A stretch of 64,000 nucleotides of DNA from a virus. Shown here piece by piece: positions 4,011 to 30,793 of the stretch. Positions within the stretch are counted from its first letter, which is position 1. Every line of letters starts with the position of its first letter. A model generated the notes under the pieces. The model worked only from the letters and a program-made list of their open reading frames with translations, was not told the origin of the DNA and did not search any database. Location of the stretch: positions 31,320 through 95,319 of the IMG/VR virus record IMGVR_UViG_3300047160_009070. One strand, 5' to 3'. The position numbers were made by a program, and so were the translations under genes.

Positions 4011-7000
4011 ATGACAGAGTACCTTTGACCTCGGCGATGCCGTCCTCGAGTTCGACGGGGACATCGAGCCGCTCGCGAGGAAGGTCCAGGAAGCCCACCA
4101 GATGGTCAAGACCGGCCTGGACGGAATGGGCCGTGAGATCCAGGGCTTCACCGCACTGGCGATCCGTTCGGGGCAGGAGCTCGAGCTTGCGTACATCCAG
4201 CCGCTGAAGCGAGGCTTCGACGAGCTTTCGCTCGCCGTGTTCGCCTACCACGAGCGTCTGACCGGGGTGATAGGCGTCACGCACGAGGCTGCGGGCGCGA
4301 TGCTGCAGCTGGGTGCCGCGTCGTCGCAGATGGCGGAGCAGACCGTCCGTGCGCTCGCCGACGTGCGGGGTGCTGTGGAGAGCACGGCGCTGCTGATCAT
4401 CGCGGCTGCCCGCAGCGAGGTTGACGCGATCAACGAGGTGACGGCCGCGTATCTGCGCCAGGCGGCGGCTGCTCGTCTCGCGGGGGGCAGTGCCGGGGTG
4501 ACGCTCGCGGCGGGTGCGCTTCCGCTTCCGTCGTTGCGGGCGGGGGTTGCGCCGGCTGCTCTCGGCCCCGCCCCGGGGCAGCCGCTCGCCGGCAACTACC
4601 GGATTTGGGGTTCGCGTGGTGACGCCGCCCCCGGCTCGATGGTGAACCCGGTTGTGGTCGCGATCGAGTCCGGCCAGTACGCCGGTCTCGGCGCACGCGC
4701 CGCGGCGCTCGGGTTCACGGCGGGCGCCCAGCCGTCCGGGTCGATCCTCGATCCGGTCACCGCCCAGGCTTTGCGTGACATCGCGCAACGCCAGATCGCT
4801 GCGGCGCCGGCGTTGACGCCGGGGGAGATCATCACTGCCGCCAGGGCGCTGCCGCAGGAGGACCTGCGCCGGCTGGTGGGAATCCTGGACCGCCCGATCG
4901 CCGGCGGCGCCGGTCCACCGATCGACTGGCGGCCGGACCCGACGTTCCGGCGTGCCGTCCAGTCGGTTTTGGCGGGCGGTCCGTTCGCCGAGCCGAACGT
5001 GTCGGTGTCGGGTTTGCAGCGGTCGCTGCAACTGCAGTACACGCAGGCGCTCCAACTCCAGAGACAGCTTCAGCAGGTGGGTCTGATCGAGTTGCGGTCC
5101 GGCGGCGGGTTCCGGGTTGTTCAGCCGAAGGTGCAGGAGTACCAGCGCCTGATGTTCGGCGCGACCGGTCCTGCGTTCCCGGGCGCCAGCTATGGCCGTG
5201 CGCCGACGGGCGAGATGGCCGGGATACCGCAGCCGGCCGAGCGACTCGACATTTTCGGGGCGCTCGCCGAGCAGCAGGCTGCACAGGAGGCGCAGATCGC
5301 ACAGCAGCAGGCTGATCTCGCGAGACAGGAGGCGCAACTCGGCCGGCAGATGTCGCTGTTCGAGGGGATGGCCCGCCGCGGCGGGATCTGGCCCGGTGTC
5401 GTGGCCGCGATGGGTCCCGAGCCGCTCGGGCCGTACGGGCCCGTAGGCCGGTTCGCGTACCGGCCTTTGGGGGTTCCGGGTGAAGCCGAGACCGGGTATG
5501 AGGCTCTGAGGGCGGGTGCGACCGGTGCGACTGCCCGCCCGACGTGGATGGGCGGGACGGTCCTGCCGCCTGAGCCGACGGTCAAGATCGACGCTGCGCA
5601 ACTCGCGGCGCTTGAGGCTGCTCTGAAGGAGGGCCGGATCAGCCAGACGCAGTTCGATGCGCTGTCCTCCGCGCTCGCGCTCGGCGGCACCCCCGGTGCC
5701 CCCGGCGGGGGAGGCGGAGGCGGAGGGGTTCCCCCGGTGGCTGTCGGTCCACCCGGTGGCGGAGGCGGCGGAGGCGGCCGTGCCTTGTGGCCTTTGGCGC
5801 TGGCTGCTCTGTGGGGACGCCCGACTCTCGGCGCACGAATCCCGTTCACTCCGTTCTCGCTGCCGATGGCCGGGTTCGGAAGCCTCGGCTCGCTCGCCGG
5901 TCTCGGCCCGGAGCATTGGCTGATGACCGCTTTGGGGATCGGCGGGTTCGCTGCCGCCGGCGCCGCCGGCGCGGGTGCGATAGCGCTCGGTTCGGCTGGC
6001 ACGCTCGCGGCCGGTGCCGGCTCGAACGCGGCTGTGATGTCGTCGACGATCAAGGACACCCAGACGCTGTCGCAGGCGATGACTGCGGTGCAGACGGCGC
6101 AGCAGAACGTGGCGCAGTCCCAGGCCGCGTATGCGGCGGCGGTTCACCAGTTCGGGCGCAACTCGACGCAGGCGACAGCCGCCGCGAGCCAGCTGACGGG
6201 CGCCACCAACACGCTGACGACCGCCCAGCAGAACTACAACAGCACCGTCAGCCAACTCGGAGGCCCGCGCGCCCCGGGTGTGCAGGCGGAGATCCAGTTG
6301 GCGAAACAGACACAGGCGCTCAACAAGTTCTGGGACCAGCAGACGCAGATGGCCCGGGTCGCCGCGGTGCACGTGCTCGAGCAGGTGGTGCAGCTGGGTC
6401 ACGACTACGTGCCGCTGGTGGCGCAGGCGGCGCAGCAGAACCTGACGATCATCAACCAGGACATCAAACCGTTGTTCTCATGGCTCGAGGGTCCGCAGGG
6501 AAGAGGCATCTTCCTGCAACTCGAGGACCAGTTCAAAAGGACTCTGCCGACCGCGATCGACGCGTTCTCCAAGGCGATCGAGGTTGTGCTGCGGGTCACG
6601 CAGGTCGCGTCCCAGTACAGCGGCACGTTCGTCTCCTGGCTCGACAAGTTGGTGAACCGCTTCAACAGCATGTCGAACGTCCAGTTCGCGAACACGATCC
6701 GGCGGCTCGTCGGCGACTTCCGGGACTGGGAGAGGTTCGCGAAGGCGATCGCCACCGACCTGTATCTGCTGTTCAGCCAGGACGTCGGCACCGGCAAGTC
6801 GATCATCACCACGCTCACCACCATGCTCGAGCATCTCGGCAAGTGGGAGAGCTCAGTGAAGGGGCGCGAGGAGATCCGCACGATCTTCGACGTGCATCTG
6901 CACGAGGTGCAGGCGCTGCTCGGGATCATGCCGAAGCTGTTCGGCGTGTTCGGCCAGCTCTACATGACGTTGGCGCCGCCGCTCACCCAACTGATGACGC

Positions 7001-10000
7001 TGATCTTGGATGTGGTGAAGGCGCTCGAGCAGATACCCGGTGGTGCGTGGGTGCTCGGTTTGGGGTTGCTGTTCAGCAGGCTCGGTATTCTCGGCGGTGT
7101 CCTCAGAGGTCTCGGACGGGCGCTCGGGATCCTCGGTGCCGGTGAGGCCGTCGCAGCAGCCGGTGGTGTGGCAGCCGGGGGGGCGGGTGTTGCGGGTGTC
7201 GGTGCTGCTGGCGTTGCCGGTGCTGCCGCAGGCGGTGGCCTGCTGGCGAGGATGGCACCGACCGCGATCGCGACACGGTTGCTGGGAGGGCTGTCCAGGC
7301 GTCTCGGGATGGGTGAGGCAAGCGCGCTGCTCGGCTCCGCTGTTCCGGCGCTCGCCGGCACGATCGCGGCGGGTGGTGGTCTGCTTGCTGGTGACTTCGT
7401 CCAGCACCTGTTCGGTCTGCGCGGCGGGACTGGGACGACGGTCGCCGGCGGTGTGGTGGGAGGTTTGCTCGGTGGACTGGCCTTCGGCCCGTGGGGAGCG
7501 GCGATCGGCGCCGGTATCACCTCGGCGCTCCTTCCGACACTCACGCACCTGTTCGATCCTAGCCGTCCGACTCCTCGCCTTCCGAGGGGCACGGTGGAAC
7601 GTCCGGTTCTGCCCGGCATGGACACACGGTTCGCTGCGGTGCTGCAGCGGGGACCGGGTGCTCTGAGGGAGTTCATCACGCAGCCGCGTGAGGTTGTTGG
7701 ACCGGGAGGCAGAGCGACAATGCTGCCCGGCCAGAGCCTCGCCGATGTTGCTGCGACCAAGGAGGCGGGGGCGGCGCTGGACCAGTGGGTGAAGTCCGCC
7801 ACTAATTCGGCGAACGTTGCCCAGATGAACGTCGGCCAGTTGAAGGCGATGCGCCGCGAGGGGCAGGCGCTACGGGAGATCTTCCCTGACGCTGCCCCGA
7901 TCATCAACAAGGCGCTCGGGGATATTCACAGCGGCATCATCGGCGCGATGGTGCCGATGCAGAAGCTCTGGGGCACCGTCATCAACCGCTGGCAGGACGA
8001 CACCTCCAAGGGTCTCGGTTCGATGGTCGACATCTTCAACAGCAACATGCGGCTGATCGACACCAGCGCCGGCCAGGGGTCGACGCACGCACGCCAGGTA
8101 ATGCGCGCGAACCTGCAGAAGATGGTGGACGACGTCACCGCCGGGATGGCCGCCGGAACGATCTCGACGAAGGCCGGGATGGACGCGATCAACAAGGCGA
8201 TCGCCGAGGGCTCCAAGGCCGGCGCGATCGGGTGGGAGATGGCGACCCACGACCAGTTCACGACGCTGATGGCGTTGCACGACGCCCACAAGATCAAGGT
8301 GTCGACATACATGCGGGACCTTGGCGGCATATACCGGACCGGGTTCTCGAACATCAAGCAGGACACCGAGAACCAGTCGAAGGCGATGCACGACTATCTC
8401 GACGCGCAGGAGCACAAGGGGCTGCTCACCCACCACGCGGCGATGCAGGCTTGGCACACCTACCAGCTGCAGGCCAACCAGCAGGAACAGGCCGACATGT
8501 CGCACTTCTCCGGCAACATCATCAATGCGCTCGCGAAGGCCGGTGCCGCGTCCGGCGGTGCCGTCGAAGCGATCCTGAAACCCCTGCTGCAGGCGCTGAA
8601 GGCGCTGGGGGTGTCGTCGTCGAGCGTCAGCCAGGTCGAGGCGGCGATCAAGGACGCCCCCAAGTTCGCCGGCACCTTCCTGAACGAGGTGACGCAGGGA
8701 CTGCCGATCGGGATCGGCCCGCAGGCAGCCGGTTCCACACCCGGCGGCGCGATCGGCACCACCACCGGTCACGGCCAGCACGGTCTGATGATCCAGTTCG
8801 GGCAGCCCGGCCAGCGTGGCCAGGACACCATCCACGCGAACTTCGGCGGCCAGCCGGTGATGGTCGCTCCCGGCGAGGTGGGGATGGTGCTCACCGGCCA
8901 GCAGCAGAACTTCCTGAACACCCGTCTCGCCGACGTCGGTGGCCTCCCCGGCATGTTCTCCACCGTCAATCAGCCGCACGCGCAGGGTTGGGGCTGGGGT
9001 GAGGGATACCAGCGCGGAGGGATGATGCTGTCCTACAGCCAACTCGAGGGGCTGTGGATCAGAGCCGGCGGTCCGCCTGCGCTCGCGTCGACGATGGCGT
9101 CGATAGCGATGGCCGAGTCGGGTGGCCGCACCAACGCGTACAACCCGTCCGGCGCGTCCGGTCTGTGGCAGATCTTGGGGTTGCCGTTCCCCGGCAACCC
9201 GTTCGACCCGATGACGAACGCCAGGATGGCTGTCACAAAGTTCCGCACCCAGGGGCTCGGCGCCTGGGTGACGTACACGTCCGGCGCCTACAGGAGCTAT
9301 CTGCACGGCGGGGTGCCTCCGTCGATGACCGCGTTCCCGCACATCCCGGTTCCCCACATCACCGGCACCGGGGCGCTCGCCGACATCGTCCGCGGCGGCG
9401 CGACGATGCTCACCCACGACGCGAACGCGTTCCTTGCACGCCAGGTCGGCCGGATGGCCGGTCGCGCTGGCGCGGGTGTCCCGTTCACCCACGGGATGCT
9501 GACGTTCCCGCTGCCGGCTGGGACGTGGCGCGGCGAGAGCCTCGACATGGGGTGGGACATCGCCGCCGCAGGCCACACACCCCTGTACGCGGTGGGTGCC
9601 GGCACGATCGTCGGCCACGGGATCCCCGGGTTCGGCCCGTGGGCGCCGATCCTCCAACTCGCATCCGGCGCCCGCGTCTACTACGGCCACGCCGGTCCCG
9701 GCCACGAGCTCCCGGTCGGCACCCATGTCAGAGCCGGCCAGATCCTGGGTGAGGTGGGAGCCGGGATCGTGGGTGTGTCCACCGGACCGCATCTCGAGAT
9801 CGGCTGGTATCCGCCGGGGAGTGCGTCGGGTGCGTCGATGAAGTCGGCGCTCGGGTTCCAGCATGGCGGCATGGTGTTCGCCCAGCGGGGCCACTTCCCC
9901 GGTCAGCATGCACCGGTTGGCCAGACGTTCGCCGGCCAGACAGTCACCGGCCACACCCGGTCGGGGACCGCCGTCTCCGGTTCGGGCGCGAGCCGCCTGT

Positions 10001-11712
10001 ACTACTACCAGGGGACCGGCTGGATCACCGGAGCCCAGCTGCAGAACATCTACAACCGCCGTTACGGCCACCATCCCGCTCCCGGCTCCCCCGGCGCTGT
10101 GCATACTGCACCTGTCGTTCATCATCGCCCCGATCCGCTGCTGACGGACATCGTGGATTTCTACGACCAGGCGGGCTTGATGGGGCAGGACAGCCCGCGG
10201 GGTGTGGGTGTGACGGTCCCCCCGGAGATCAACCTGCTCGGGAGGATCACCGAGCGGATCACCGGCCTTCGCGCCCAGGGCCTCCCGTTGGGAGGTCCGG
10301 TCAGCCTGCTGACGGGTTTGGGGAGGGTGTCGGGCGGAGGGTTCGACGCGATCCAGGCTGCGCTGAACCGGGCGATGTCAAGAATGACCGCAAGCCAGGC
10401 GTACGACCTCGCGCTGGACTACGGCCGTGCGCTGGGACGCCACCCCGCCGCACCCCGGCTGGCTGCGGAGCGCGAGCTCCGTCTTGACGAGCGTTCGCTG
10501 AGCCGTCTGACCGGCGAGATGCACAGGATCAGCGCGGAGCGCAGAAGCGAGCGTGCTCTGATGATGAAGGAGCACGGCAACCAGCGAGCTCGTACCGGCC
10601 AGCATCTGCGCAAGCTGCGGGACGAGGCGCACAGGGACCATGTGGACGCACAGAAGATCCGTACCGACATCGCCCACGACATGCACACCGTCGCCGCCGG
10701 GCGTCCCGCCGAGGTTCTCACCACCATCCTCACCCATGCGCTGACCGGCATCTCGAACGTGTTCACCCACCAGCAGGACCAGGCGAGCACGCTCAGCTCG
10801 TTCACCAGCGCGATCGGGAGCGTGCTGCCGAGAACGCCGCTCGCTCAACTCGGCCTGTACGGAACGCCGGGGCGCCGGGCGCTGGCACGAATGGGCCTCA
10901 CCCCGCGTGACGCTCGCCTGCTCGAGGGCGGCACCGCGTACGGCGCCCAGATGGTGCAGTACGACATCTTCAGCGACCAACTCGCCCAATACCAGCATGA
11001 CCGGGCGCGTCTCGGCGAGCTGTACCGGCAGGCTTTGAAGACCCACAACAAGAAGCTGCAGAACTCGATCCTCGACGAGATCAACACGGTCGACACCGCG
11101 ATCGCCTCCACCGAAGGGGACCGCCAGACCGCCCTGTTCAACGCGATCCAGGCGAAGGCCGGCCAGATCGGCCTGCCCGCCCAAAGGATCGCCGACCAAA
11201 TCACGGGGCTGCAGGCGATCCAGGGACTCGCGCCGGGAGCGAACATCGCCGGTCTGCTCGGCGGCGCGAACATCGTCCAAACCCTCGGGCTGGGCGGCGC
11301 GCAGCCCGGCACCGGCCTGTCGTATTTCCAGAACCTCGCGTCCGCGCAGGGCGGGACGCTCACCGCCAGCCAGATCGCGGCCGCCACCGCCGGCGTGAAC
11401 TCGATGAACGACATCCTCCGCAGCGAGATGGCGCCGCTCCAGAAAGAACTCCAGTATTACGAGCACGAGCTTCCTTCCCTGTCCGGCACACAGCGCGACA
11501 CGGTGATCAGCGCGATGAACGGTTTGGCGCAGCAGATCTTCGGGTTGCAGGGCTCGATCGACACGAACACCACGTCGCTGAACCAACTCACGGGCGCCAC
11601 GAACGCGAACACCAGCGCCACCGGCCAGATGACCGGCACCGTCGCCTACGCCTACCAGGGCCAGAACTGGCTGGCGTCGGTGACCGGTCCGAACGTCACA
11701 CAGGGAATCTGA
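4011..11712 (+). CDS. Tape measure protein with lytic transglycosylase (~9020-9310) and M23 peptidase (~9500-9820) domains; N-terminus needs recoding at 4023-4032
   Basis: 2536-aa ORF from 4102, Ala/Gly-rich; AMAESGG...ASGLWQI (SLT-like); GWDIAA...YYGH...STGPHLE (M23); RBS AAAGGAGG 3991-3998 precedes ATG 4011, which hits TGA after 5 codons, while LGDAVLEFDGD continues in the TMP frame. Confidence 0.9.
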
Positions 11713-11717
11713 AGTGA

Positions 11718-14700
11718 ATGACCGTCATCGTCTCGCCGACACCCCTCGGTCCCCCAGCCCCGCCCAGTGGCTGGAACGTCGTGTTCGCGGACGGGTTCGA
11801 CCAGGCGTCCGGGCTGTGGACCGGACCGTCCGGCGGGTGGGGCCCGAGCCGCAACAACAACGCCGGCAACGGGATCTACCAGGCTCCGTTCAACACCAAC
11901 GAGGTGGAGGCGTGGACACAGGACTCGGTGACCGTCGGTCCCGGCGGCCTGATCCTGACAGCCACCTACATCGGTTCGACGACAGCCACGATCGACGGCA
12001 GCAGCCGCACGTTCCGCTACAAGTCCGGGTGTGTCACCACACAGCCGTTGCTGCCGTCCGGTGGCCAGACCGGGTTCAACATCAACGGGTTCACGTTCCA
12101 GGTCCGCCCCGGGTTGACGTGGTGCCACGAAATCGTCTGCACGCTCCCCACCTATTTCGGCGCCGACCCGGCGTTCTGGTCGCAGGGACCCGGCACCGGC
12201 CAGATCGAGAACGACCATCCGGAGTGGACGTTCTACGCCGCCGACCACACCTCCACGGCGCTGGAGCAGGCGCTGATCGACTGGAGCTCGCCCGGTCCGC
12301 CGCAGGTCGGCTACGAGTCGTTCAACGTCGCCCAGATGACCGACGGGGTTCAGCACACATGGACGACGGTGATGGACGGCACCGCCCGGCAAACCAGGCT
12401 GTACATCGACGGGCACCTGTTCTCCACGTTCAACTGGCTGTCGAGCTTCGCCGGTTCGACACCCTCCTACATCGGCTCCAACTATTTCATCTCGCATGCG
12501 CTGCGTGACGCCTACACCGGCCAGTACCCGTCGTTCACCGACACGCGAAACTTCACGGTCCGCTCGGTGGTGTGCTACGCCCCCACGTCGCAGGGCACAA
12601 CAGGCACCGTCGGCGGTGGTGTCGCCCCCGGAACGCTCGTCGGCTCGCCACCCCCTCCGCCCCCACCACCACCCCCGCCTCCTCCCCCGCTGCCGCCGCC
12701 GAGCGGCACCGGCAATCCGTCGCTCTCAGGCCACTTGACCTCAGCCACCCCCGTTCTCCAGATCGGCCGGCTTGCGCTCGGCCCACCGACGATGCCGATC
12801 ACCGAAAGTGTCGGGGATCCCGTCGGCCAGGTCGGCGCGACGATCGTCGGCGCCCCGCGTGTGCCGTTGCAGATCACGCTCGACATCAACACGATCCTGA
12901 GCGGCTCCTCCACCGTCGCGCACGCCCAGATGGTCCGCCGGCAGATGCGCTCGATGCTCGGCAACACCCCACTGAAGCAGCAGTGCTTCCTGTATGTGGT
13001 GTACACCGACGATCCGGAGCAGAACGGCTGGATCATCCCGCAGCCCACTTCGTTCACCAGCCCGGACGGGACGGCATGGAAGGCGGTGGCGCTGTGGGAG
13101 ACACCGTCCGCCACCTGGTATCTCGCCGGCCGCAAACGCTCGATGCTCGAGGCACGGTCGATATGGATGAAGGACCTGCGGACCGGCAACTACGAGCGTG
13201 ACGTGCTCGGCTGGATCGTCTCGCAGGACTTCAACGCGCTCCCGGCGCTGCAGATCGTCGCGATGCCGAACGGCTCCATGTCGATCTCCAACTCGGTCAG
13301 CGACGCACGGCTCCCGTCCACCAACATGCCGGCAGGACGCGACGGCGGCATCGCCCAGCAGGTCCTCGGCGCGGTCGACCTCGACTTCCTGTGCTATGAG
13401 CGTTCGGAGGACACGCTGAACCTGTCCGACGTGGTGGTGTACGACCGGCGTGGCGTGATCTCCGGCTCGTTCTACCGGTCGGTGATCGTGAACGACGCGC
13501 CGAGCCTCTGGTACCGGATGGACGAAACGTCCGGCTCGACGATGGTCGACACGATGGGGAACGCGAACGGCACCTACAACGGTACGTCCACGCCGAACCT
13601 GTGCCCGTACCCGCTGACGCACAACTCGGGGGACGTGTCCGGCTGGTCAAGCGGCGCGGTCGCGGCGGTGATGGTGTCCGGCGCCACCCTGTCGTGGGTC
13701 ACCTCGCCGCTGCCGCAGTTCGGTGCCCCGGCCGACGCGAGCCTCGGCGGCGAGATGCAGATCACCACCACAGCGGCAGCCAGCGAGGGAGCGAGCCTGC
13801 TTCTCGGGGGCACGTTCCTGATCAACGTCCCGTACCGCATCGACGTGTATGTGCGAGGAAACTCGGGTGGCGAGACCGTTCAGGCGGGTGTCGGCGACCC
13901 CGCCGGCGACTACGTGTTCACCAGCGCAGCGACTCTCACGAACACGGGGTGGACGAGGATCGGCATCAACTGGACACCGTCCGCGAACCGAACCAACGTC
14001 CACATCTTCGTGCGGACCACCGCCGCGTCCGCGATGACGTTCTTCCTGAACGCCGTGCAACTCACCCAAACCCCGTCCGGCGTCCAACCCTATTCCGACG
14101 TGCAGAGCTACATGCTCGGGCAGTCAGGAGCCCTTGCGGCATCCGGCGACACCGACGCTGCCGTCCTGTTCGACGGCTACACCGGCAACGCGACGGTGCC
14201 GTTCAATCCGGCGTTCGCGACCCCGCAGTTCAGCTTCGAGTTGTGGATCAACCCGGAGGTCACCACCAGCGCCACCAACCAGTCGGTGGTGTTCACCGAG
14301 GTCACCAGCGGTGGCCGGTCCGGCGGCTACGGGCTCAGCATCCTTCCCGGCGGAACTCTCAGGATCACGATCTTCCATCCGGACGGGACGAGCCTGACGT
14401 TCAGCGGCAGTTCACTGGCGACCGACGTGTGGTCGCATGTTGTCGTCACCTACGACGGGGCGATCGTCTGGATGTACGTGAACGGGGTTCTGGGACCGAG
14501 AGTCTCGTTCACCAACTACGGGCCCCCGTTCGGGACGCTGACGCTCGCGGCGAACGGTCCCGGCGCTGTCGGCCTGTTGAACGCCGACATCGACGAGGTC
14601 GCGTTCTACAACTATGCGCTGACCGCAGCCCAGATCGCCGAGCACTACAACGCGGGCACCGGCATGGACGCCGGCGTGGTTCCCACCTCGATCAGCGGCT

Positions 14701-16031: not shown

Positions 16032-16043
16032 GTGCGCGGCTAG

Positions 16044-19409: not shown

Positions 19410-19412
19410 CCG

Positions 19413-20639: not shown

Positions 20640-20647
20640 GGAGAACG

Positions 20648-21944: not shown

Positions 21945-21977
21945 AACTGCATATCCGAGTATTGGGGTAGCCTTTAG

Positions 21978-22051
21978 GGCGAATCCGTCAGATTCGCCAC
22001 CAGCGGAAGCTCGCCATCGTCTCTCACCCGGACCGGCGAGCTTCCGTCTTT
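21978..22051 (+). ncRNA. Two-hairpin element: terminator and candidate antisense sRNA
   Basis: GGCGAATC/GATTCGCC (21978-21998); 12-bp CGGAAGCTCGCC/GGCGAGCTTCCG (22004-22046) with a 19-nt loop, followed by TCTTT. Confidence 0.55.
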
Positions 22052-22065
22052 CCGGGGTGCCACAG

Positions 22066-22094
22066 TTGCAACCCGACCGGCTTTCTGTCATACT
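22066..22094 (+). promoter_or_regulatory. Sigma70-type promoter TTGCAA-N17-CATACT with conserved spacer
   Basis: Spacer cccgaccggctttctgt resembles the spacers at 49615, 58453 and 60425. Confidence 0.7.
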
Positions 22095-22142
22095 CCCGGT
22101 ATGGACTTAGGAGTCAGCTAGCTCTCGAAAGGAGGGTGATCT

Positions 22143-23363
22143 ATGGCAGGATTGGACGAGCCTGTCAGAGCTTCGAGCGTCGAGATCAAACCGGTCATCT
22201 GGCTGTGGCGCGAAAGGGTGCCGCGCAAGATGATCACGATCTTCGGCGGACGGCGCGACCAAGGGAAGGGTTTGGGTTGCGTCCACATCGCCGCCGAGGT
22301 GTCGAACAGCACCTATGTCGGCAAGGACGGCAAGGAACGCCCCGGCTATGTGATCTACTCGGCTGCCGAGGACGCGCACGAGGAGATGACCGCGCCGCGC
22401 CTGAAAGCGGCGGGGGCGAACCTGGACAACATCGACCTGTGGCGCTTCCGGCTCCCGAAGGACCATGAGAAGCTCGCGAAGCTGCTGCTGCAGATCGACC
22501 AGCCGCGAGAGGTAGACCTGGTGGTCATGGACCCGATCGCCAGCCACCTGTCCGGCAACATTTCGCGTCATTCCGACAACATCCGGACGGTGACGGAACC
22601 GTTGACGCGGCTGCTGGAAGCGACCGGGACGGCGTGCATCGTCGTCGAGCATGTGCTGAAGAAGGTGCCTTCGTCCGGCCACCCGATCGACGCGATCGGC
22701 GGGGGAAGCTCCGGTCTGATCGCCGCCGCGAGGATGGCGTTCCTGCTCGGCATCGACCCGAAGGACGACGAGCGCAGGTTTTTGTGCTGCGTGAAGCACA
22801 ACGTCCGCGACAAGCCGATGGAGATCGCGTTCGAGATGGACCTGGTTGACGTTCCCCCGGCGGGCGACATGCCCGCGTTGATGTTCGACGAGGAGTGCAC
22901 GTTCAACCCGATGAAGTTCCTTGTGATCACGCACGGCAACCGTGTCGGGCGTCCCCCGGACAAGCGCGCAGCCGCCTGCGAGTGGCTGGCGAACTATCTG
23001 TGGGAGGCGTACTACAAGGGTCTGCCCGCGCTCGCGAACGAACCGGCGATCCCGCCCGGTCCGGTGCTCGCCGCACGCGCGTACGAGGACGGCAAGCAAC
23101 TCCAGATCTCCACCAAGACGCTGAAGCGCGCGTCGCAGGACATGGAGATCGTGAAGGACCCGCCGACCGGCGCGGGAACGAAGTGGTCGCTGCCGGACGA
23201 ACTGAAGCAGCTGCTGGACGAGGCGAACGGAATCGTGAAGGGCGAGCCGATCTCGGAGCAGAACGCTCCGGGTGACGCGACCAAGAGCCTCGAGGACGAG
23301 TTGGCGGCGATGATCGACGAGAAGAAGAAAGCGAAGAAGAAAGGCAAGAGCGATGGATCTTGA
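22143..23363 (+). CDS. RecA-fold AAA_25/RepA-like helicase
   Basis: IWLWRERVP...GRRDQGKG (variant Walker A), SAAED, LVVMDP (Walker B), HVLKK...GSSGLIAAAR...VKHN; strong RBS. Confidence 0.75.
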   Translation: MAGLDEPVRASSVEIKPVIWLWRERVPRKMITIFGGRRDQGKGLGCVHIAAEVSNSTYVGKDGKERPGYVIYSAAEDAHEEMTAPRLKAAGANLDNIDLWRFRLPKDHEKLAKLLLQIDQPREVDLVVMDPIASHLSGNISRHSDNIRTVTEPLTRLLEATGTACIVVEHVLKKVPSSGHPIDAIGGGSSGLIAAARMAFLLGIDPKDDERRFLCCVKHNVRDKPMEIAFEMDLVDVPPAGDMPALMFDEECTFNPMKFLVITHGNRVGRPPDKRAAACEWLANYLWEAYYKGLPALANEPAIPPGPVLAARAYEDGKQLQISTKTLKRASQDMEIVKDPPTGAGTKWSLPDELKQLLDEANGIVKGEPISEQNAPGDATKSLEDELAAMIDEKKKAKKKGKSDGS

Positions 23364-23955
23364 GAACCTGCCGTTCAAGCCGATCGCGGCGCCTGACGAC
23401 ACGTTCCGTGTCCCCGACCTCGCCGAGGTGGTGAAGGGCTGGCGGTGCTGGTCGCTGGAGAGCAAGACGCTGCGCTACGGCCTGAAGCCGAAGCTGTACT
23501 CGGTCGCCGGGACATCCGGATATTTCTGGGTCCCCCGGCGCGAGTCGGTCGCCGAATGCAACCGTGTCGACAAGCAGCATCCGTCGAGCGACGTTCCGCA
23601 CGACGAGGCCAGCCACCTCTGCGGGTTCTATTCGGCCAAGACGTACAAGCATTTGAAGACAATGCCGTACTGGAAGTACAACGAGGAGGTGGACGGCTAC
23701 TTCAAGATCGTGGGTGTCGTCGCGAACTGGGGCAAGGTGATCGAATGCAGCCTCGGATGGCGCGCCCAGAAGGCGTACCCGAACACGCTGTTCATCCCGT
23801 ACGAAGCGTGGCGGCTCGCAAGACCGCTCGCGGAGACGTACGGGGTGCCGGTGTATCTGAAGAACTTCCTGCAGGCGTACGGAAAGGAACGCCTGGGGGA
23901 GACGGACGACGACGTCGCCGTGGTGGCGGCGGGCAACACGAAAGGAGCCTCATGA
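23353..23955 (+). CDS. Phage hypothetical protein
   Basis: GWRCW...CGFYSAK...WGKVIE..GWRAQKA; coupled ORF. Confidence 0.6.
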   Translation: MDLENLPFKPIAAPDDTFRVPDLAEVVKGWRCWSLESKTLRYGLKPKLYSVAGTSGYFWVPRRESVAECNRVDKQHPSSDVPHDEASHLCGFYSAKTYKHLKTMPYWKYNEEVDGYFKIVGVVANWGKVIECSLGWRAQKAYPNTLFIPYEAWRLARPLAETYGVPVYLKNFLQAYGKERLGETDDDVAVVAAGNTKGAS

Positions 23956-24461
23956 CGGACCAAGAAGTGAAGAAGGTGCTTGCGAACATGCTGATCAACT
24001 TCAAGGCGATCGGCTGGACGCAGGGAACGTTCCAGAACAGCGACGGCGAGGTGTGCCTCGTCGAGAGCTTCAACACCACACAGCGGAACGCCGGCGTTGA
24101 CGCACGCGGATTCGCGGGTGAGGGCGCGATGCAGATCGCGAACGTGCTCGGGTTTCCGTCGCCGTCGGCGGCAGCGGCGTGGAACGACACGCCGGGCCGG
24201 ACCGAGGACGAGATCAAGGACCTTATCCGCGCCGCGATCCGCGGGGAGATCACTCCCGTCGAGCCCGCCGACGATGTTGACGTCTATGACGGCGAGCCGT
24301 ACGACATGGAGATCGGCAAGAAGCAGCGGACGATCATCGTCGAGCCGACCACGATCCCGGTGCCGCAGCCTGAGCGTGCACCCGCACCCGCCCGCGAGCC
24401 GGTCAGACGCCGGGAGCAGGCACCGGAGCGCGAGCCGGAGAGGGTGCCGGAGCACGCATGA
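23952..24461 (+). CDS. Hypothetical protein with Pro/Glu-rich tail
   Basis: RBS AAAGGAG with ATG 23952; GWTQG...CL...WNDTPGRT pattern. Confidence 0.6.
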   Translation: MTDQEVKKVLANMLINFKAIGWTQGTFQNSDGEVCLVESFNTTQRNAGVDARGFAGEGAMQIANVLGFPSPSAAAAWNDTPGRTEDEIKDLIRAAIRGEITPVEPADDVDVYDGEPYDMEIGKKQRTIIVEPTTIPVPQPERAPAPAREPVRRREQAPEREPERVPEHA

Positions 24462-24820
24462 CCGAGGACGTTCTCCAGCAGGAGCAGCCGGACGACCAGC
24501 CCGCCAAGGCGGAGGTCGATGGCTCTATCTGGACTCGTGACAGGGCGGCCGACATTCTTGCTCGGCCGCTCCATCCGAGCACGCTCGTAGGGTCTTGGTG
24601 CAGTGTCTGGGCGGACGGCCAGATCCTCGAGCTTGGCTTGGTGGTCGGCGAACCCGATCCGGGGCGCCGGTATCTCGTCCAGTTCTACGACGGCGGCTCG
24701 GTTGAGCAGATGACCCCGACCCACCAAGAGCATTTCAGGGTCGACGACATGGACGACTGGCATTTCTACGACACGCAGGAGGAGATGGTGGCGGCGTGGT
24801 TCAAGCACGGGCTGCAGTGA
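24458..24820 (+). CDS. Hypothetical protein
   Basis: ATGA-coupled acidic ORF. Confidence 0.55.
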   Translation: MTEDVLQQEQPDDQPAKAEVDGSIWTRDRAADILARPLHPSTLVGSWCSVWADGQILELGLVVGEPDPGRRYLVQFYDGGSVEQMTPTHQEHFRVDDMDDWHFYDTQEEMVAAWFKHGLQ

Positions 24821-24960
24821 CGCGCAGGCTGCGCGGCATGGTTGAGCGGTTCGCGCTGTGGCTTCTCGAGAACGAGTTGGAGAACCGTTTCGGTTCGCCG
24901 GAGCAGCGCCGCGAGGCGGCCGAGACGTTCGCCAGGGCCTACCCGAACTGGCCGTCATGA
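24817..24960 (+). CDS. Small hypothetical protein (47 aa, MTRRLRGMVERFALW...), not in the ORF track
   Basis: GTGA and ATGA overlaps at both ends. Confidence 0.5.
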   Translation: MTRRLRGMVERFALWLLENELENRFGSPEQRREAAETFARAYPNWPS

Positions 24961-25178
24961 CGGAACGCACCGGCGTGATCGTGCATTGCCTGACCCGTGA
25001 GGCGTGGATCGCGATCGCGGAGGGGGCGATCGTCAACGATCTGCCGCTCAAGCCGGCGGAGGTGGAGAGAATGAAAGCGGCGCTGGGAGGGTTGACGGCG
25101 GAGGAGCGAGCTCGTCTTGAGGAGGCGAGACGGGAGCGCGCCAAGACGCGCAACGGTAACGGGAGGAGGGCGGCATGA
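24957..25178 (+). CDS. Hypothetical protein
   Basis: ATG 24957 (MTERTGVIVH...), coupled at both ends. Confidence 0.5.
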   Translation: MTERTGVIVHCLTREAWIAIAEGAIVNDLPLKPAEVERMKAALGGLTAEERARLEEARRERAKTRNGNGRRAA

Positions 25179-26458
25179 GCGTGACCGGTCTGACGTTGAC
25201 GCCGAAGGTGAACGAGCTGCTTGCCGGCTTCACGGTGCAGGGGTTCGGGCAGGTGACGGTGCAATGGAAGGAGCAGTCGGATCCGTCGCCTTGGGCGAAC
25301 GTCCCGGTTGTGATGTTGCCCGGTGGCCAAGGCGCGAGGACGTACGCGATCACCGGCCTGAACGGCGGGGTGCCGTACACGGTGCATGTCGACTCGCCGC
25401 CGCACGGCCGCTACTCAAGGACAGCGACCGGCGTCCCGCTCGCCGCACCCCCACCGCCGCCTCCGCCTCCCCCCCCGTCGGTGTTCACCGTCCCGGCGCA
25501 ACCGGGTGGTGTCACCCCGGCCGCCGGGCTGAGGGTGGTCTGCGCCGACGCGTTCAACCCCGCCTACCCGCTGTGCCCGCAGCTGTGGCTCCCGAACCGC
25601 GCGCCGTATCTGGGCGCCTACCCGGCGGGCAACGCCAGCGGGTTCAATCTGAACGAGGTGGAGGTGCTGCACCCGTCCAGGGTTGCGGTCAACCCGGCGG
25701 GCGGCGTGGACCTCGAGGCGGTGTACAACTCCGCCGGCTGGAGCTCGCCGCTGTACAACAAGACGGTGAACTGGCAGGCGGGCTGTCTCGTCACCCGCCC
25801 GCGGTCCTACCCGTCCGGGACTTCGCCGGCGTTCTCCGGCGCCCCGCCCGGCTACACCGGGTTCGGGTTCAGGTTCCCGACCGGCGCCAGGGACATGCTG
25901 GTGCTGCGCCTGGTGTGCACGCTGCCGCCGTACCCCGGCGAGGACTGCGGCTACTGGACGTGGGAGCAGGACACGGTCGGCGAGTGCGAACAGGACTTCT
26001 GCGAGTGGTGGAACCATGGTTCCAACAACGGCCAGGGCGTCAACTGCTGGTTCGGTGACGACAAGGGCGCCAACCGGTTCTCGAACCCGGACTGCTACCA
26101 CTACGTCACTGCGACCGGCGGACCGCAGCACGACGCGACCGAGCACGAGTGGACCCATGTATTCGACGGCTCGAGGTGCTGGTGTTTGCTGGACCAGCAG
26201 CCGTTCATGGTCAGCGACTCGTCCGGCACCCAGCACACTACGTCTGTTCCCTACCCGCCGCCGGGACCGAACGGCACCCCCACCAGGCTGTGGCAGTCGA
26301 TCATCCTGTCCCACGCCCTGCGGAACGTCGGCTCGGGTGCGGTGCCCGACCCGGCGAACAGCCCGTCCGTCTGGCACATCAAGTCGTTCGCCGCGTACGC
26401 GACACCGGGTGTGCAGACAGCCGGCGGTGTGGTCGCCCCCGGAACGGCGGTGGTGTGA
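25175..26458 (+). CDS. FN3-like + poly-Pro + GH16/ConA-like protein, paralogous to the N-terminus of 11718..16031
   Basis: VTVQWK...YAITGLNGGVPYTVHV (FN3); shared motifs NEVE, CTLPxYxGxD, SHALR and GGV-APGT-V. Confidence 0.65.
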   Translation: MSVTGLTLTPKVNELLAGFTVQGFGQVTVQWKEQSDPSPWANVPVVMLPGGQGARTYAITGLNGGVPYTVHVDSPPHGRYSRTATGVPLAAPPPPPPPPPPSVFTVPAQPGGVTPAAGLRVVCADAFNPAYPLCPQLWLPNRAPYLGAYPAGNASGFNLNEVEVLHPSRVAVNPAGGVDLEAVYNSAGWSSPLYNKTVNWQAGCLVTRPRSYPSGTSPAFSGAPPGYTGFGFRFPTGARDMLVLRLVCTLPPYPGEDCGYWTWEQDTVGECEQDFCEWWNHGSNNGQGVNCWFGDDKGANRFSNPDCYHYVTATGGPQHDATEHEWTHVFDGSRCWCLLDQQPFMVSDSSGTQHTTSVPYPPPGPNGTPTRLWQSIILSHALRNVGSGAVPDPANSPSVWHIKSFAAYATPGVQTAGGVVAPGTAVV

Positions 26459-26769
26459 TGGGACATCACCAGCCGGTGTTCGACGGGCCGGTGCCGCTCG
26501 CGGTGATCGCACCCGCCACACGCCGCGAGTTGGACAGCCGCGCCAAACAGCGGTTCGGCCTGACGCTCGAGGGGATGTACGCCACCTGGGCGTACTGGTG
26601 CCGGCGCGCCGGGACGTTCAGGGCGCTGCCGTGGTGGCAGCGCCGGAGGGTGCGCACGGCGATCAGGGAAGCGGACCGCAAAGCCGAACTGAACCTTGAG
26701 CGCATACGCGCCCTATGGAATCCGTCGGTCGATGTGGTAGAAGTTGCCGACCGAACAGGAGATCCATGA
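26458..26769 (+). CDS. Hypothetical protein
   Basis: TGATG-coupled ORF (MGHHQPVFDG...). Confidence 0.5.
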   Translation: MGHHQPVFDGPVPLAVIAPATRRELDSRAKQRFGLTLEGMYATWAYWCRRAGTFRALPWWQRRRVRTAIREADRKAELNLERIRALWNPSVDVVEVADRTGDP

Positions 26770-27005
26770 CCGAGACGATTCCGATCAACGCCCCACGCCG
26801 CCGGCGCCGCGGCCCCGAGTTGATGGGCGCCAGGGAGGTAGCGGACTGCCTCGGCGTGAAGGTGTCCAACCTGCAGTTCATCAAGGACCTGCCGCAGCCG
26901 TTGCAGGAGCTCACGTGCGGGCGTGTCTGGCTCGCCGCCGAGATCCGCAAGTTCGCGGAGGTTTACGAGGCGAGGCGCGAAGCCCGCCAGACGAAGGCTG
27001 CGTAA
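26766..27005 (+). CDS. AlpA/excisionase-like HTH DNA-binding protein
   Basis: ELMGAREVADCLGV...LPQP...GRVWLAAEI. Confidence 0.7.
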   Translation: MTETIPINAPRRRRRGPELMGAREVADCLGVKVSNLQFIKDLPQPLQELTCGRVWLAAEIRKFAEVYEARREARQTKAA

Positions 27006-27133
27006 AGCAGCCGGTTCCTCGACCAAGGAGGTAGCACCACACGACCATTAGCGGCGCGGCCGAAGTAAGCGAGTAGGCCAACGTGCGAGCGCCGAGCTGG
27101 GCAGTGACCTAATACCGTTCAGGAGGTTCCTTC

Positions 27134-27715
27134 ATGAAGTACCTCGTCCGGCCAGCCGTTGTGCTGGCCGTTGCTGTTCCCGGGCTGGCGGGGAGCGCGC
27201 ACGCCCGGGTGTTCCCGGTCGCGCACGCGTCGTCCCGGCTGCTGGCGTCGGCGCCTGCCTGCGACAGGCTGTACAGCGTCGCGATGGCGAAACGCGCGAT
27301 CGACGTCACCTACCGCCGGGGGGAGCGCCGCCACGACGTTGACCATTTGCGCCGGTTCATCCGCTGCCAGCGCAACCCCGGCCATTCGCAGTCCTATTTG
27401 AGGGGAGAGTGGGCGCGGCAACGCGCCAGATGGAGGGAGAGAACAGCACCGCCGCCGGCTCAGGTTGCGAGCTCGACGCCGGCGAGCGGGCTGGCTGTCT
27501 GCATCATCCACGCCGAGTCGGGCGGGAATTCGCAGGCCGTCAATGGACAATACGAGGGAATCGCCCAGTGGTCACCCAGTAGCTGGGCTGGCGGCGGCGG
27601 GTTGCGGTTCGCCTCGACGCCGCTGGGGGCCAGTTACAGCGAGCAGGTGATCGTCCTGAACGAGATGCTCGCCAACGGGCAGGCGTCCCAGTGGACGTGC
27701 TGCGATCCGTGCTAG
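27134..27715 (+). CDS. Secreted Rpf-like (resuscitation-promoting factor) transglycosylase
   Basis: Signal peptide ending AHA; CIIHAESGGN...NGQYEGIAQW...W...GG...ASYSEQ...QW; RBS AGGAGG. Confidence 0.75.
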   Translation: MKYLVRPAVVLAVAVPGLAGSAHARVFPVAHASSRLLASAPACDRLYSVAMAKRAIDVTYRRGERRHDVDHLRRFIRCQRNPGHSQSYLRGEWARQRARWRERTAPPPAQVASSTPASGLAVCIIHAESGGNSQAVNGQYEGIAQWSPSSWAGGGGLRFASTPLGASYSEQVIVLNEMLANGQASQWTCCDPC

Positions 27716-27731
27716 AAGCTAGAAGCTAGAA
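27711..27731 (+). repeat. Tandem repeat (GCTAGAA)x3
   Basis: gctagaa gctagaa gctagaa, overlapping the rpf-like stop codon. Confidence 0.8.
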
Positions 27732-27736
27732 CTTAG

Positions 27737-27772
27737 ACGGCCGGGTGGTCATGCGATCGCCCGGCCGTTTTT
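27737..27772 (+). terminator. Rho-independent terminator
   Basis: ACGGCCGGGTGGTC-atgc-GATCGCCCGGCCGT followed by TTTT. Confidence 0.85.
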
Positions 27773-27794
27773 GTCGCTAGCTGCGGCAAAACCC

Positions 27795-27823
27795 TCGACG
27801 GCTGGCCGTCATAGCGTCACAAT
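27795..27823 (+). promoter_or_regulatory. Candidate promoter TCGACG-N17-CACAAT containing the palindrome GACGGC-tg-GCCGTC
   Basis: Lies after a terminator and before the recombination operon. Confidence 0.4.
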
Positions 27824-27868
27824 GCGCCGATCGTTACAGTGGGCGTCCGGTGAGCGTGGTAGCTTCGT

Positions 27869-29065
27869 ATGGGTGAGAGACGAGCAGGCCGATCACGGCT
27901 GTGGGCTGGACGTCCCGGGTGCGGCGTGACCAGGCAGCTGTCGTTCACCGAGATCCAGACCGCTTTGACGTGCGAGGGACGCCACGCGTTCCAGTACACC
28001 GGCCGTCTGACCGGCGGCGAGACTCTGAAGCGTAAGCAGATCGCCGTGGAGCTTTCCAACGGCCGCGCCTGGGGTGCTGCTGTGGCTGCGTGGCACGGCT
28101 TCCCTGCCGACACGAGCCTGCTGGACGCCTACCGGCCCGTACTCGCCAAGCAAGCCGCCCACGAGGCGCTGCTGGCGTCCTACAGGCATGATGTGGAGGA
28201 GCAGCTCGCCGCCGGCGTGTGGGTTCCGGTGGAGGCACAGGTGGACCGCCAGACTTGGCTGGCGGAGATCCTCGACCATTACATGGCGACCGGCGTCCCG
28301 CTCGAGAATCTCACCAGGATCGAGGGTGGGTTCGATATGCCGCTGCCGTCCCGGACAGGCAAACGTGTGTCGACGGTGTACCGGTTCACCGGGTTTCTTG
28401 ACGGCTGGACGGTCCCGGCCGGCGGTGGGCATGCGCTGGTGGAGTTCAAGTTTCGCTCCCGTCTCACCCCGCCGGACCAGGTGCAGCTGTCCCGGCAGGT
28501 CCGCTGGTATGCGCTGGCGTTGCAGCGCGAGACGGGTGTGCCGGTGATCGGCGCGGTCCTGGATGAGCGTTTGGCGGAGCCGCCGAAGCCTCCGCGTGTG
28601 GTGCAGGCGAAACGCAAGGGGGAGGGTGTGGACGGCTGGACGGTCAGTCACGCCAAGGACCAGCTCACCACCCCCGAGCTTTATCTCGAGGCGTGCGGGT
28701 TGTTCGACGCCGAGCCGGAGCCCGACACACTCGATGCTCTGCGGACTCGTTTGTGGCAGCAGCGCCACCCGATTCTGTTCCGCCCGTCCGAGTTGGCTGA
28801 GGCGGAGCGCGAGTTGGTGTCGGCGGCGAAACTGATCCGCGATCTCGATTCGGGCGCCCGCTACCCGGTGCGTAACGCCCAGACGCAGCTGTGCCGCCGC
28901 TGCCGCTATCTCGAGGCATGTCCGAACCCGGACGACCAGTTTTATCTCGACACGCTCTACGAGCGCACTGTGCCGAAGAGGCTGCGTGCTCGAGAGGAGG
29001 AGAGCACCGGCGGGGGAACTCTGGCCCCTGGACCCCCCGCCGGCCTCTTCGCGGAGGCAGCATGA
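27869..29065 (+). CDS. Cas4/RecB-like PD-(D/E)xK exonuclease (start 27869 ATG or 27926 GTG)
   Basis: LSFTEI..ALTC, FTGFLDGW...LVEFK, QVRWYALAL, C-terminal CRRCRYLEAC Cys cluster. Confidence 0.8.
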   Translation: MGERRAGRSRLWAGRPGCGVTRQLSFTEIQTALTCEGRHAFQYTGRLTGGETLKRKQIAVELSNGRAWGAAVAAWHGFPADTSLLDAYRPVLAKQAAHEALLASYRHDVEEQLAAGVWVPVEAQVDRQTWLAEILDHYMATGVPLENLTRIEGGFDMPLPSRTGKRVSTVYRFTGFLDGWTVPAGGGHALVEFKFRSRLTPPDQVQLSRQVRWYALALQRETGVPVIGAVLDERLAEPPKPPRVVQAKRKGEGVDGWTVSHAKDQLTTPELYLEACGLFDAEPEPDTLDALRTRLWQQRHPILFRPSELAEAERELVSAAKLIRDLDSGARYPVRNAQTQLCRRCRYLEACPNPDDQFYLDTLYERTVPKRLRAREEESTGGGTLAPGPPAGLFAEAA

Positions 29066-29493
29066 TGGCCTACAACGACGTGAACTTCACTTGCTGTGTG
29101 TGCGGGATCGCGATCACGATGCCGGAGGGCCTGTATCAGCAGCGGGTGACGGATCACGGCGAGTTCTATTGCGTGAACGGCCACCGGCAGCGTTTCACCC
29201 AGAAGGACAAGAAGGAGCAGGAGATCGCCCGTTTGCGCGAAGAGGTGCGAGCCAGGGACTCGCTGATCGAGACTTTCCGTAGCGAGGCGAACGAATTGTG
29301 GGATGAGCGCGAGGGTTTGATCGCTTTGCTGCGCGAATGCCCGCTCTGTGATTGGCGCTCCAGCAAGCGCATCCCCCGGGGTGGTGTTCGTGCCGGCGTT
29401 GAGCGTGTCCACCAGCAGTTGGTCGACCATTTGGCGCACGACCACGGGCTGCCGGTGCCGCAGGAGCAGCGTCTTCTGGAGGCGGGGGCGTGA
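29062..29493 (+). CDS. Zn-finger/coiled-coil hypothetical protein
   Basis: CCVCG...FYCVNGH...CPLC; RBS GGAGG. Confidence 0.6.
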   Translation: MMAYNDVNFTCCVCGIAITMPEGLYQQRVTDHGEFYCVNGHRQRFTQKDKKEQEIARLREEVRARDSLIETFRSEANELWDEREGLIALLRECPLCDWRSSKRIPRGGVRAGVERVHQQLVDHLAHDHGLPVPQEQRLLEAGA

Positions 29494-29957
29494 GCTCCAC
29501 CCGCCATGGCGTGTCCGGCAAGTGGGACGGCCTCATCGAGGAGCGCGACCGGCTGAAGGACCAGGTGCAGGGCCTGAGCGATCATGTCGAGCGTCTGGTG
29601 GAGGAGTGCGACAGGCTGCTGGACGCCAAGGAGCTTCAGCTGCACGAGCTACGCGACCTGCTTCGGGACCAGCCGAACGAGGCTTGGGCGACTGTTTCGG
29701 GGACGGTGGAGGTCGCTCAGCGTCGTGTGGAGGAGGCCGAGGCCCGCGCCGACATCCGGCCTGACAGCGACGAGCAGGAGGCGCTCGACGCTTTGCAGAG
29801 CTACATGGCGGTGGTGGTGCACCGCTGGAAGCTCCGCGCCAACCAGGGCGAGTTGCTCGCCGCTGTTCACACTCTGCAGGGCGCTGTCCAGCAGCACCTG
29901 CTTCACCGGATCGCCCCGAACAATTGGGCTAGCTGGTGGCAGGAAAGTTCACCATGA
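29490..29957 (+). CDS. Coiled-coil hypothetical protein
   Basis: GTGA-coupled; heptad-rich. Confidence 0.55.
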   Translation: MSSTRHGVSGKWDGLIEERDRLKDQVQGLSDHVERLVEECDRLLDAKELQLHELRDLLRDQPNEAWATVSGTVEVAQRRVEEAEARADIRPDSDEQEALDALQSYMAVVVHRWKLRANQGELLAAVHTLQGAVQQHLLHRIAPNNWASWWQESSP

Positions 29958-29991
29958 GCGATCCGTTGAGGCGGAGAAGGGACGGAATCTG

Positions 29992-30793
29992 ATGCGATTC
30001 GTGGACCGACCGGGGCCTGCTAGACCGAACATTCTGATCTACGGGCCCCCGTAAGGAACCAAAGGTGGGTAAGACGGCGGGTGCGTGCTCGTCGGGTTTG
30101 GGAACGATCCTGTTCAACCTCGATCTCCCGAACGCGACCCGTTATGCCCGTTCCAAGAAACGCGATCCGGACGGCAGGGTGATGGAGGTCGAGTTGCCGC
30201 CGTTCGAGGAACGCAAACTCCCGGTCTTCGATCTGATGGGCGAGATCTCCCGGTCGGTCGCCGATCCGCGCCAGGAGGTGGCGGAGGTGGTGGTCACCGA
30301 CCCGATGGGCGAGCTTTACCGGCGTCTGCTGGAGGAGGTGTCGAACCGGTCGATCCATCCGACGTTCGATCACCGGCTGTGGGTGACCACCCAGATCGAG
30401 CGTTACTGCCGGTTCCTGTGCGAGCTGCCGACCATTTCGGCGATCTTCGTGTGCCACGAGCTTCCGGTGAAGGACGAGTCGACCGAGTCGTTCGAGCGGT
30501 TGCCGTTCACCGGCACCACCAACATCAATCTCGGCGCCAAGTTGATGTCGATGGTGGATGTGATCGCCTACGCCGGCGTGTCGGTGCAGGAGAACGGCGC
30601 GAAGGAGTACGGTGCCCAGTTGATCATCGACCAAGGGCGCCGCGGCGGGGACCGGTTCGATTGTCTGGGGGACTATCGCCCGCTGGATTTGAAGGACTGG
30701 TTCGCGGCGATCGCTGGGGCGGAGGTTGCCGATCTCAGCGCTGAGACCAGTAGCGAGGAGCCTGCCGGGAAGCCGGTGGCGGAGGCGGCGTGA
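29992..30793 (+). CDS. AAA_24/Sak4-like ATPase interrupted by a 10-nt stop-containing gap (30052-30061) inside Walker A
   Basis: MRFVDRPGPARPNILIYGPP* then, in the +1 frame, KVGKTAGACS...VVVTDP...IFVCHE...MVDVIAY; joining gives GPPKVGKT. Confidence 0.8.

Follow-up and report, generated by a model that had tools for sequence, protein, structure and literature searches.

Candidate sites of short, stop-triggered translational bypassing in three genes of an uncultured high-GC phage

Genes divided by short gaps

The DNA considered here is a linear contig of 95,319 bp from a JGI metagenome, available as IMG/VR virus record IMGVR_UViG_3300047160_009070 (CheckV completeness 82%). The final 64 kb of the contig constitute the window, i.e., the whole stretch that was analyzed initially (64,000 nucleotides, positions 31,320 to 95,319 of the record), and all coordinates refer to the window unless the contig is named. 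The GC content of the contig is 66%, and nearly all of its genes are encoded on the + strand. In three of them, which encode the tape measure protein, a Sak4-like recombination ATPase and a DUF5131 enzyme, the reading frame is ended by a stop codon close to the start of the gene, and the remainder of the same protein is encoded in a different frame a few nucleotides downstream. The build is common to the three sites. It comprises a sense codon (the take-off codon), an immediate stop, and a synonymous codon of the same codon box (the landing codon) 7, 10 or 5 nt on, respectively; the take-off codon with its stop and the landing codon are CTT-TGA and CTC in the tape measure gene, CCG-TAA and CCA in the Sak4-like gene, and ACT-TGA and ACC in the DUF5131 gene. 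The breaks in the first two genes had been described in the initial annotation and are confirmed; their stops lie at 4026 and 30052, and they show one architecture in two unrelated genes, one early and one late. Both sites are real, but the count of two did not stand, as the DUF5131 site was added by a scan of the whole contig.

The tape measure gene

The 5' end of the tape measure gene contains the following features.

3990..3998, + strand: Shine-Dalgarno sequence of 9 nt, read from the sequence, which serves the ATG at 4011 and is the strongest ribosome-binding site in the region
4011..4025, + strand: initial 5 codons of the tape measure gene, including the take-off codon CTT at 4023-4025; their residues line up with residues 1-5 of the homolog P0110
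4026..4032, + strand: coding gap of 7 nt, made up of the stop TGA (4026-4028), C, and the synonymous landing codon CTC (4030-4032) in the +1 frame
4033..11712, + strand: main part of the tape measure gene, in which decoding would resume at GGC 4033; it encodes M23 peptidase and lysozyme-like domains (Pfam)

The frame that encodes the body of the protein comprises 2,566 codons and is open from 4015, while its first ATG, GTG or TTG is found only at 4102, where a weak AGGA is the sole ribosome-binding site. The third-position GC content (GC3) of this frame is 0.85-0.95 already from about 4015-4030, and codon log-odds call the frame from about 4030-4033. The stretch 4030-4101, which has no in-frame start, aligns with two homologs, P0110 (31% identity, E value 1.5e-11) and a tape measure protein encoded on the related contig G002. 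In these proteins a Met is located four and six residues, respectively, ahead of a conserved Leu-Gly-Asp/Glu-Ala motif. As the stretch is conserved and yet has no start of its own, it would be reachable only from ATG 4011 by way of a frame change. Judged by coding signal and conservation, ATG 4011 must be the true start of the tape measure gene, with the change of frame following it.

Two kinds of frame change may be considered at this site. If the ribosome were to skip the gap from CTT to the CTC at 4030 (a hop), the product would align with P0110 without gaps from residue 1 (score 152), whereas the alignment of the +1 product includes a 2-residue gap (score 140). On the other hand, CTT TGA C is letter for letter the +1 shift motif of prfB, the gene for release factor RF2, and GAG, a weak element, is positioned 3 nt upstream. 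A slip of this type on CTT-T would add two residues, and the frame it enters is also open. Because the length of the leader varies between 4 and 6 residues in the homologs, which makes the +1 product acceptable, and because the RF2 motif is exact, the hop and the prfB-type slip are rated as about equally likely at this site. For the tape measure site considered by itself, a single-step shift thus has close to an even chance of being correct.

No promoter or terminator consensus was found in the region 3800-4150. Neither a word-index search nor a metagenome scan with the tape measure N-terminus returned a match, and an exhaustive HMMER search with the same query returned two hits only. DNA and protein searches of a deposited phage collection gave no match to the tape measure or to the Sak4-like gene.

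The same tape measure N-terminus is also present in P0109, encoded by a 1923-bp JGI contig. This protein is identical over 148 residues to the translation of 4102-4560 in the window, after which a frame shift occurs. The shift lies in a GC-rich stretch encoding mainly Ala and Pro, and points to variation, of the assembly or of the population, within this low-complexity region.

The Sak4-like ATPase gene

The second site divides a gene whose product matches phrog_124 (E value 2.6e-8).

29992..30051, + strand: first piece of the Sak4-like gene, 20 codons, starting with ATG 29992, ending in the first half of the Walker A motif, with the take-off codon CCG at 30049-30051
30052..30061, + strand: coding gap of 10 nt, made up of the stop TAA (30052-30054), GGAA, and CCA (30059-30061), the landing codon, which lies in the +1 frame; the gap contains the Shine-Dalgarno-like sequence AAGGA
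30062..30793, + strand: body of the Sak4-like gene, resuming at AAG 30062; PF13479 family, phrog_124

The search for homologs returned 106 proteins with up to 63% identity, nearly all of which contain PF13479 (AAA_24). The spacing of the Walker A motif is identical in all 97 full-length homologs, 93 of which have the canonical motif while the remaining 4 differ from it by one residue. Relative to this spacing the window contains exactly 10 extra bases, and only a 10-nt skip from CCG 30049 to CCA 30059 results in a canonical P-loop. A profile was made of the 93 homologs to score the possible products; with it, the product of the hop reached 329.5 bits with no insertion. The two +1 products obtained 322.1 and 320.7 bits, each with three inserted residues, and a protein starting at GTG 30065 obtained 300.4 bits. 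The Walker A motif is complete in the hop product only. A +1 shift on the run of C residues, which would be the single-step counterpart of the prfB-type slip in the tape measure gene, places its three additional residues within the P-loop, a spacing found in none of the 97 full-length homologs. A scan of a genome collection with the Sak4 alignment returned no match.

The DUF5131 gene

The third gene precedes the window by 16.9 kb and was flagged by the scan because a strong ribosome-binding site is followed by a short open reading frame (ORF) that ends inside a long ORF of another frame.

L008:14365-15137 (contig coordinates): DUF5131 gene (PF07505, Gp37-Gp68)

The upstream piece of 28 codons ends with ACT (14446-14448), followed by TGA, and the landing codon ACC (14451-14453) overlaps the stop. 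The change of frame is +5, which is equal to -1 and not to +1. In the Pfam alignment, the 28-residue upstream piece corresponds to positions 2-25 of PF07505 and the body, from its second residue, to positions 26-221; the two pieces score 172.3 and 34.8 bits, the cut-off being 28.9. Since the upstream piece ends at position 25 and the body begins at position 26, a 5-nt hop would count the Thr once, with no residue lost or added. The spacing of the Cys motif is fixed in 106 of the top 120 DUF5131 homologs, that is, in all 106 that have the full motif, and 24 of these 106 carry the exact residues of the hop product. A DNA alignment with seven relatives places 5 extra bases in this phage only.

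The initial annotation had assumed a generic +1 recoding, which does not agree with these results. The protein families fit a hop between synonymous codons over 5-10 nt, and no +1 shift is able to mend the DUF5131 gene. A -1 shift would restore its frame, but it adds two residues between the cysteines, and the site has no slippery heptamer. Hence, single-step frameshifting at all sites, i.e., a +1 shift of the prfB type in the tape measure gene, another +1 shift on the run of C in the Sak4-like gene and a -1 shift in the DUF5131 gene, has in its favor the exact RF2 shift site and the variable leader of the tape measure protein, and against it the invariant spacing of the P-loop and of the Cys motif. 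We regard it as scarcely probable as a common explanation.

Two DUF5131 homologs from other assemblies have N-termini that deviate at the corresponding position. The start of P0120 resembles an out-of-frame translation of the upstream motif, joined in-frame to His-Cys-Tyr-Ala, while in P0207 a Met directly precedes Thr-His-Cys-Tyr-Ala, i.e., stands at the landing position. These N-termini suggest that other phages may have a frame break at this DUF5131 codon as well. About eight more homologs on long contigs were called from an internal Met.

Shared architecture and genome-wide occurrence

Removal of the gap restores the family sequence exactly in the Sak4-like and DUF5131 proteins, and in the tape measure protein it leaves a gap-free alignment with the closest homolog. 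The sites fall at codon 5 of about 2540 in the tape measure gene, codon 20 of about 260 in the Sak4-like gene and codon 28 of about 256 in the DUF5131 gene. If positions were uniform, the probability that all three would fall within codons 5-28 is about 2e-5. In a simulation in which random insertions of 5, 7 or 10 nt were placed in the genes of this phage, 964 of 400,000 (0.24%) were compatible with a hop, so that three of three compatible sites would be expected by chance with a probability of about 1e-8.

The bare pattern of a codon, a stop and a synonymous codon occurs often: the genome has 791 raw matches, almost all of them off-frame stops inside genes or normal junctions, and the pattern by itself therefore proves nothing. 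A coding-frame filter leaves 21 short matches that change frame. Three are the sites described above, and the other 18 were explained by inspection as start/stop overlaps (ATGA, TGATG), as an upstream start in the downstream frame, or as cases with no start in the upstream frame. Among the filtered matches, only the three sites join upstream and downstream pieces of one protein family. Frame-transition and mini-ORF scans, together with inspection, found no other broken gene on the 95-kb contig, and the initial view that the DNA shows no general decay is borne out by scans of all 95 kb, which flag these three genes only.

Several individual candidates were rejected. For a CCG-TAG...CCA arrangement before the small terminase gene, a profile match indicates a normal gene start. 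The gene upstream of a CGC-TGA...CGT pair is a complete member of phrog_16160, and the fused protein that would result at a TTT-TAG...TTC arrangement is unsupported by family searches. The candidates at 443, 36671 and 40679 turned out to be overlapping starts of the ordinary type. With the large terminase as query, a viral scan gave no match.

All three broken genes were called as truncated ORFs by gene callers, and genes of this type may at present be annotated in this way elsewhere. The same downstream starts might be used in nature if the insertions were real but inactivating, in which case the genes would be dead or would give rise to shortened proteins by re-initiation, and the phage would be defective or helper-dependent. 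Consistent with this explanation, the inserts are present in none of the relatives, and in-frame starts are available at or near all sites (ATG 4102, GTG 30065, and a TTG before the DUF5131 landing codon), which are of the kind selected by the gene callers. However, random inserts fit the build of a hop in only 0.24% of cases, while three of three do so here, all within the first 28 codons. The re-initiated Sak4-like protein would be without its first strand and half of its P-loop, the re-initiated DUF5131 protein would be without two of the three motif cysteines, and the 25 codons ahead of ATG 4102 are conserved with the homologs. Moreover, no other decaying gene was found on the contig, and a metagenome consensus in which three lethal or harmful lesions had become fixed is improbable. 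Thus, we consider inactivation unlikely.

Alternatively, the extra bases may be assembly or sequencing artefacts, as the record is an uncultured IMG/VR contig and, at the tape measure site alone, a single extra T in a run of three would suffice to produce the break. However, errors do not usually take the form of 5- or 10-nt insertions outside homopolymers, and they would not each be expected to start with a stop and to end in a synonymous codon. In addition, contigs from other assemblies (ENA, 1111 bp; JGI, 1923 bp) carry products whose calls begin at the same downstream starts, although they possibly derive from the same sample. An artefact is consequently very unlikely.

Proposed mechanism

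In our judgment, it is fairly probable that the three sites are places of short, stop-triggered translational bypassing, closest to the hops in the terminase gene of phage phiHau3. With the stop codon in the A site, slow termination would delay the ribosome. The peptidyl-tRNA would then release the take-off codon, the mRNA would slide by 5-10 nt, the same tRNA would re-pair with the landing codon, and decoding would restart at the codon after it. One tRNA could serve each pair of codons, namely Leu-GAG, Thr-GGU and Pro-UGG, with wobble pairing at the take-off codon and Watson-Crick pairing at the landing codon; the assignment follows standard bacterial wobble rules and not the tRNA set of the host. 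Among the codons involved, the take-off codons CTT (5.1 per thousand) and ACT (3.0 per thousand) and the landing codon CCA (3.0 per thousand) are rare in the contig. Only a fraction of the ribosomes would yield the full protein. Partial bypassing would thus lower the yield of three proteins that may be needed in small amounts only, and the location of the sites at codons 5, 20 and 28 would make failed attempts cheap.

A G-rich triplet 3-4 nt upstream of the take-off codon may act in the manner of the internal Shine-Dalgarno sequence of prfB. The elements observed at this distance are GAG, AGGG or GGG. The stop context is UGA-C at two of the three sites, and UGA-C is the weakest stop context in E. 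coli. The initial annotation had drawn attention to the fact that TGA is read by RF2 only and TAA by both RF1 and RF2; this holds as a property of the codons, but no result supports it as a meaningful difference between the sites. RNA structures were predicted around two of the take-off codons.

3995..4032, + strand: nested RNA helices, predicted (z-score -1.7, not significant)
30012..30049, + strand: hairpin, predicted, with a 3' arm that reaches exactly to the first base of CCG, the take-off codon (z-score -0.6, not significant)

In the tape measure gene, the inner part of the predicted structure is an 8-bp hairpin (4002-4009/4016-4023) that extends up to the first base of CTT, the take-off codon, and an outer helix of 6 bp would pair the region of the ribosome-binding site (3995-4000) with the gap and the landing codon (4027-4032).

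Several points weigh against bypassing. The inserts are not conserved: the gap is absent from all 13 related DNA loci that are readable at the Sak4 site, each of which is uninterrupted, and from all 78 readable DUF5131 loci. Furthermore, 106 IMG/VR contigs match the intact DNA motif of DUF5131, and none has 7-16 nt at the position of the gap. Being present in no readable relative, the inserts give no sign of maintenance by selection, and they may be young. Neither predicted RNA structure reaches significance, and the G-rich triplets were noticed post hoc. UAA-G, the context of the Sak4 stop, does not count as weak in E. coli, and CCG is read mainly by tRNA-Pro(CGG), which is unable to pair fully with CCA. 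The nascent chain at codon 5 is too short for a peptide signal of the gene 60 type. Lastly, population heterogeneity or a fault of assembly may underlie the extra bases, and the contigs of the other assemblies might stem from the same sample.

Comparison with known systems

Very few natural systems are known to use translational bypassing; among them are gene 60 of phage T4 with its relatives, the mitochondria of yeast, and the terminase of phiHau3, which has been tested in part. The three sites are most likely a variant of this known but very rare kind. An Rpf-type domain (PF06737, 37.2 bits), the presence of which had been claimed initially, is encoded at 27506-27703 inside an ORF of 27134-27715, and together with codon usage it suggests that the host is actinobacterial.

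The large terminase gene of phiHau3, a Streptomyces phage, contains two 10-nt inserts headed by UUA, and 7-nt versions are found in two prophages (Smith et al. 2013, PMC3807479; Antonov et al. 2023, PMC10732093). Bypassing was shown by mass spectrometry in E. coli after the leading UUA had been changed to the stop UAA, and the case was argued from the same logic of collinearity that is used here (PMC10732093). Both systems seem to fall in the range of high-GC actinobacterial phages, and both have inserts of 10 or 7 nt that break the frame within conserved protein motifs, with flanks that are collinear with uninterrupted homologs, a slow codon at the head of the insert, and matched take-off and landing codons. 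A Shine-Dalgarno-like sequence and a hairpin close to the site have been put forward as signals in both, although at the present sites they are not statistically supported and serve only as leads. The present sites differ from phiHau3 in having natural stops (TGA, TGA and TAA) in place of UUA, in being distributed over three unrelated genes rather than occurring twice in one, in their gaps of 5, 7 and 10 nt with one landing codon that overlaps the stop, and in their location within the first 28 codons. They are also known from sequence alone.

With gene 60 of T4, the sites share a stop after the take-off codon, a matching landing codon, and, if the proposal holds, the assembly of one protein from two frames. 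In contrast to gene 60, where the gap is 50 nt and belongs to a cassette with the homing endonuclease mobA, the gaps are 5-10 nt and the nascent chain is too short to provide a peptide signal. No homing endonuclease was matched in the neighboring genes, and no HNH, HNH_3 or GIY-YIG domain was found on the contig. The resemblance to prfB comprises the identical heptanucleotide at the tape measure site as well as, at all three sites, the stop in the A site and the G-rich triplet 3-4 nt upstream. The upstream element is, however, only GAG, AGGG or GGG, no release factor gene is involved, and a +1 shift neither fits the P-loop of the Sak4-like protein nor mends DUF5131. Short hops over a stop between synonymous codons, as proposed here, are known from artificial constructs in E. 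coli, in which, as cited in PMC10732093, low-level stop-hops occurred with an efficiency of about 1% (Weiss et al. 1987). The presence of several sites in one genome is shared with the byp elements of Magnusiomyces capitatus mitochondria, which according to the same source are mobile, 27-55 nt long and numerous per genome (Lang et al. 2014, cited in PMC10732093).

As the initial annotation suggested, the sites might also be regulatory and couple tail assembly and recombination to the termination efficiency, release-factor activity or growth state of the host, for example in dormancy or starvation. The grounds for this are ones of analogy only: for the UUA sites of phiHau3 it has been proposed, but not proven, that they sense the state of the host (PMC10732093), the phage encodes an Rpf-type domain, and a stop would serve as the slow codon at all three sites. 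The sites are not conserved, and nothing evident calls for controlling the three genes jointly; we consider this role quite improbable. A broader version is that very short stop-hop sites constitute a translational throttle near the starts of the virion assembly, recombination and DUF5131 modules, with the yield set by host release-factor activity or by the state of the peptidyl-tRNA, or else that a property of the host ribosome or a phage factor makes hops efficient enough for frame-breaking inserts to be accommodated in essential genes. We offer this as a speculation that is itself rather unlikely to be correct.

If the proposal of bypassing holds, three short stop-headed gaps would occur in unrelated genes of one phage, one of them at codon 5 of an essential structural gene, and short hops would be a usable decoding option in high-GC bacteria. 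The three compact cassettes of 5, 7 and 10 nt are, in that event, on offer for mechanistic work, and the truncated ORFs reported by gene callers would be a warning for annotation. Should the sites be silent, the case would still illustrate how to distinguish a chance-like pattern from decay.

Other features of the contig

Three tRNA genes were called by ARAGORN.

L008:10483-10555: tRNA-Met(CAT)
L009:4229-4300: tRNA-Arg(TCG)
41109-41203 of the window: tRNA-Gln(CTG), 95 nt, doubtful, as it lies inside a coding ORF

The ARAGORN calls include no phage tRNA for Leu, Thr or Pro, and none of the called tRNAs decodes the take-off or landing codons.

Upstream of the tape measure gene, the region 2952-3868 encodes a probable pair of tail assembly chaperones. 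The putative chaperone ORF (2952-3509) has a -1 frame extension with coding signal to about 3868, and the two frames, for which no family match was obtained, overlap around T TCG GGG A (3497-3505). A non-coding spacer of 140 nt separates this region from the tape measure start.

At L008:7660-7790, two large ORFs of 802 and 656 codons meet in the same frame and share an unusual composition (GC1 0.53, GC3 0.9). Only a TAG lies between them, with a GTG directly after it and no ribosome-binding site, and the junction could be either a case of readthrough or an ordinary junction. Finally, between 44271 and 45750 of the window the coding signal switches between two + frames, and an ORF on the - strand (44754-45284) has a high GC3; it is probably one of the few genes encoded on that strand.

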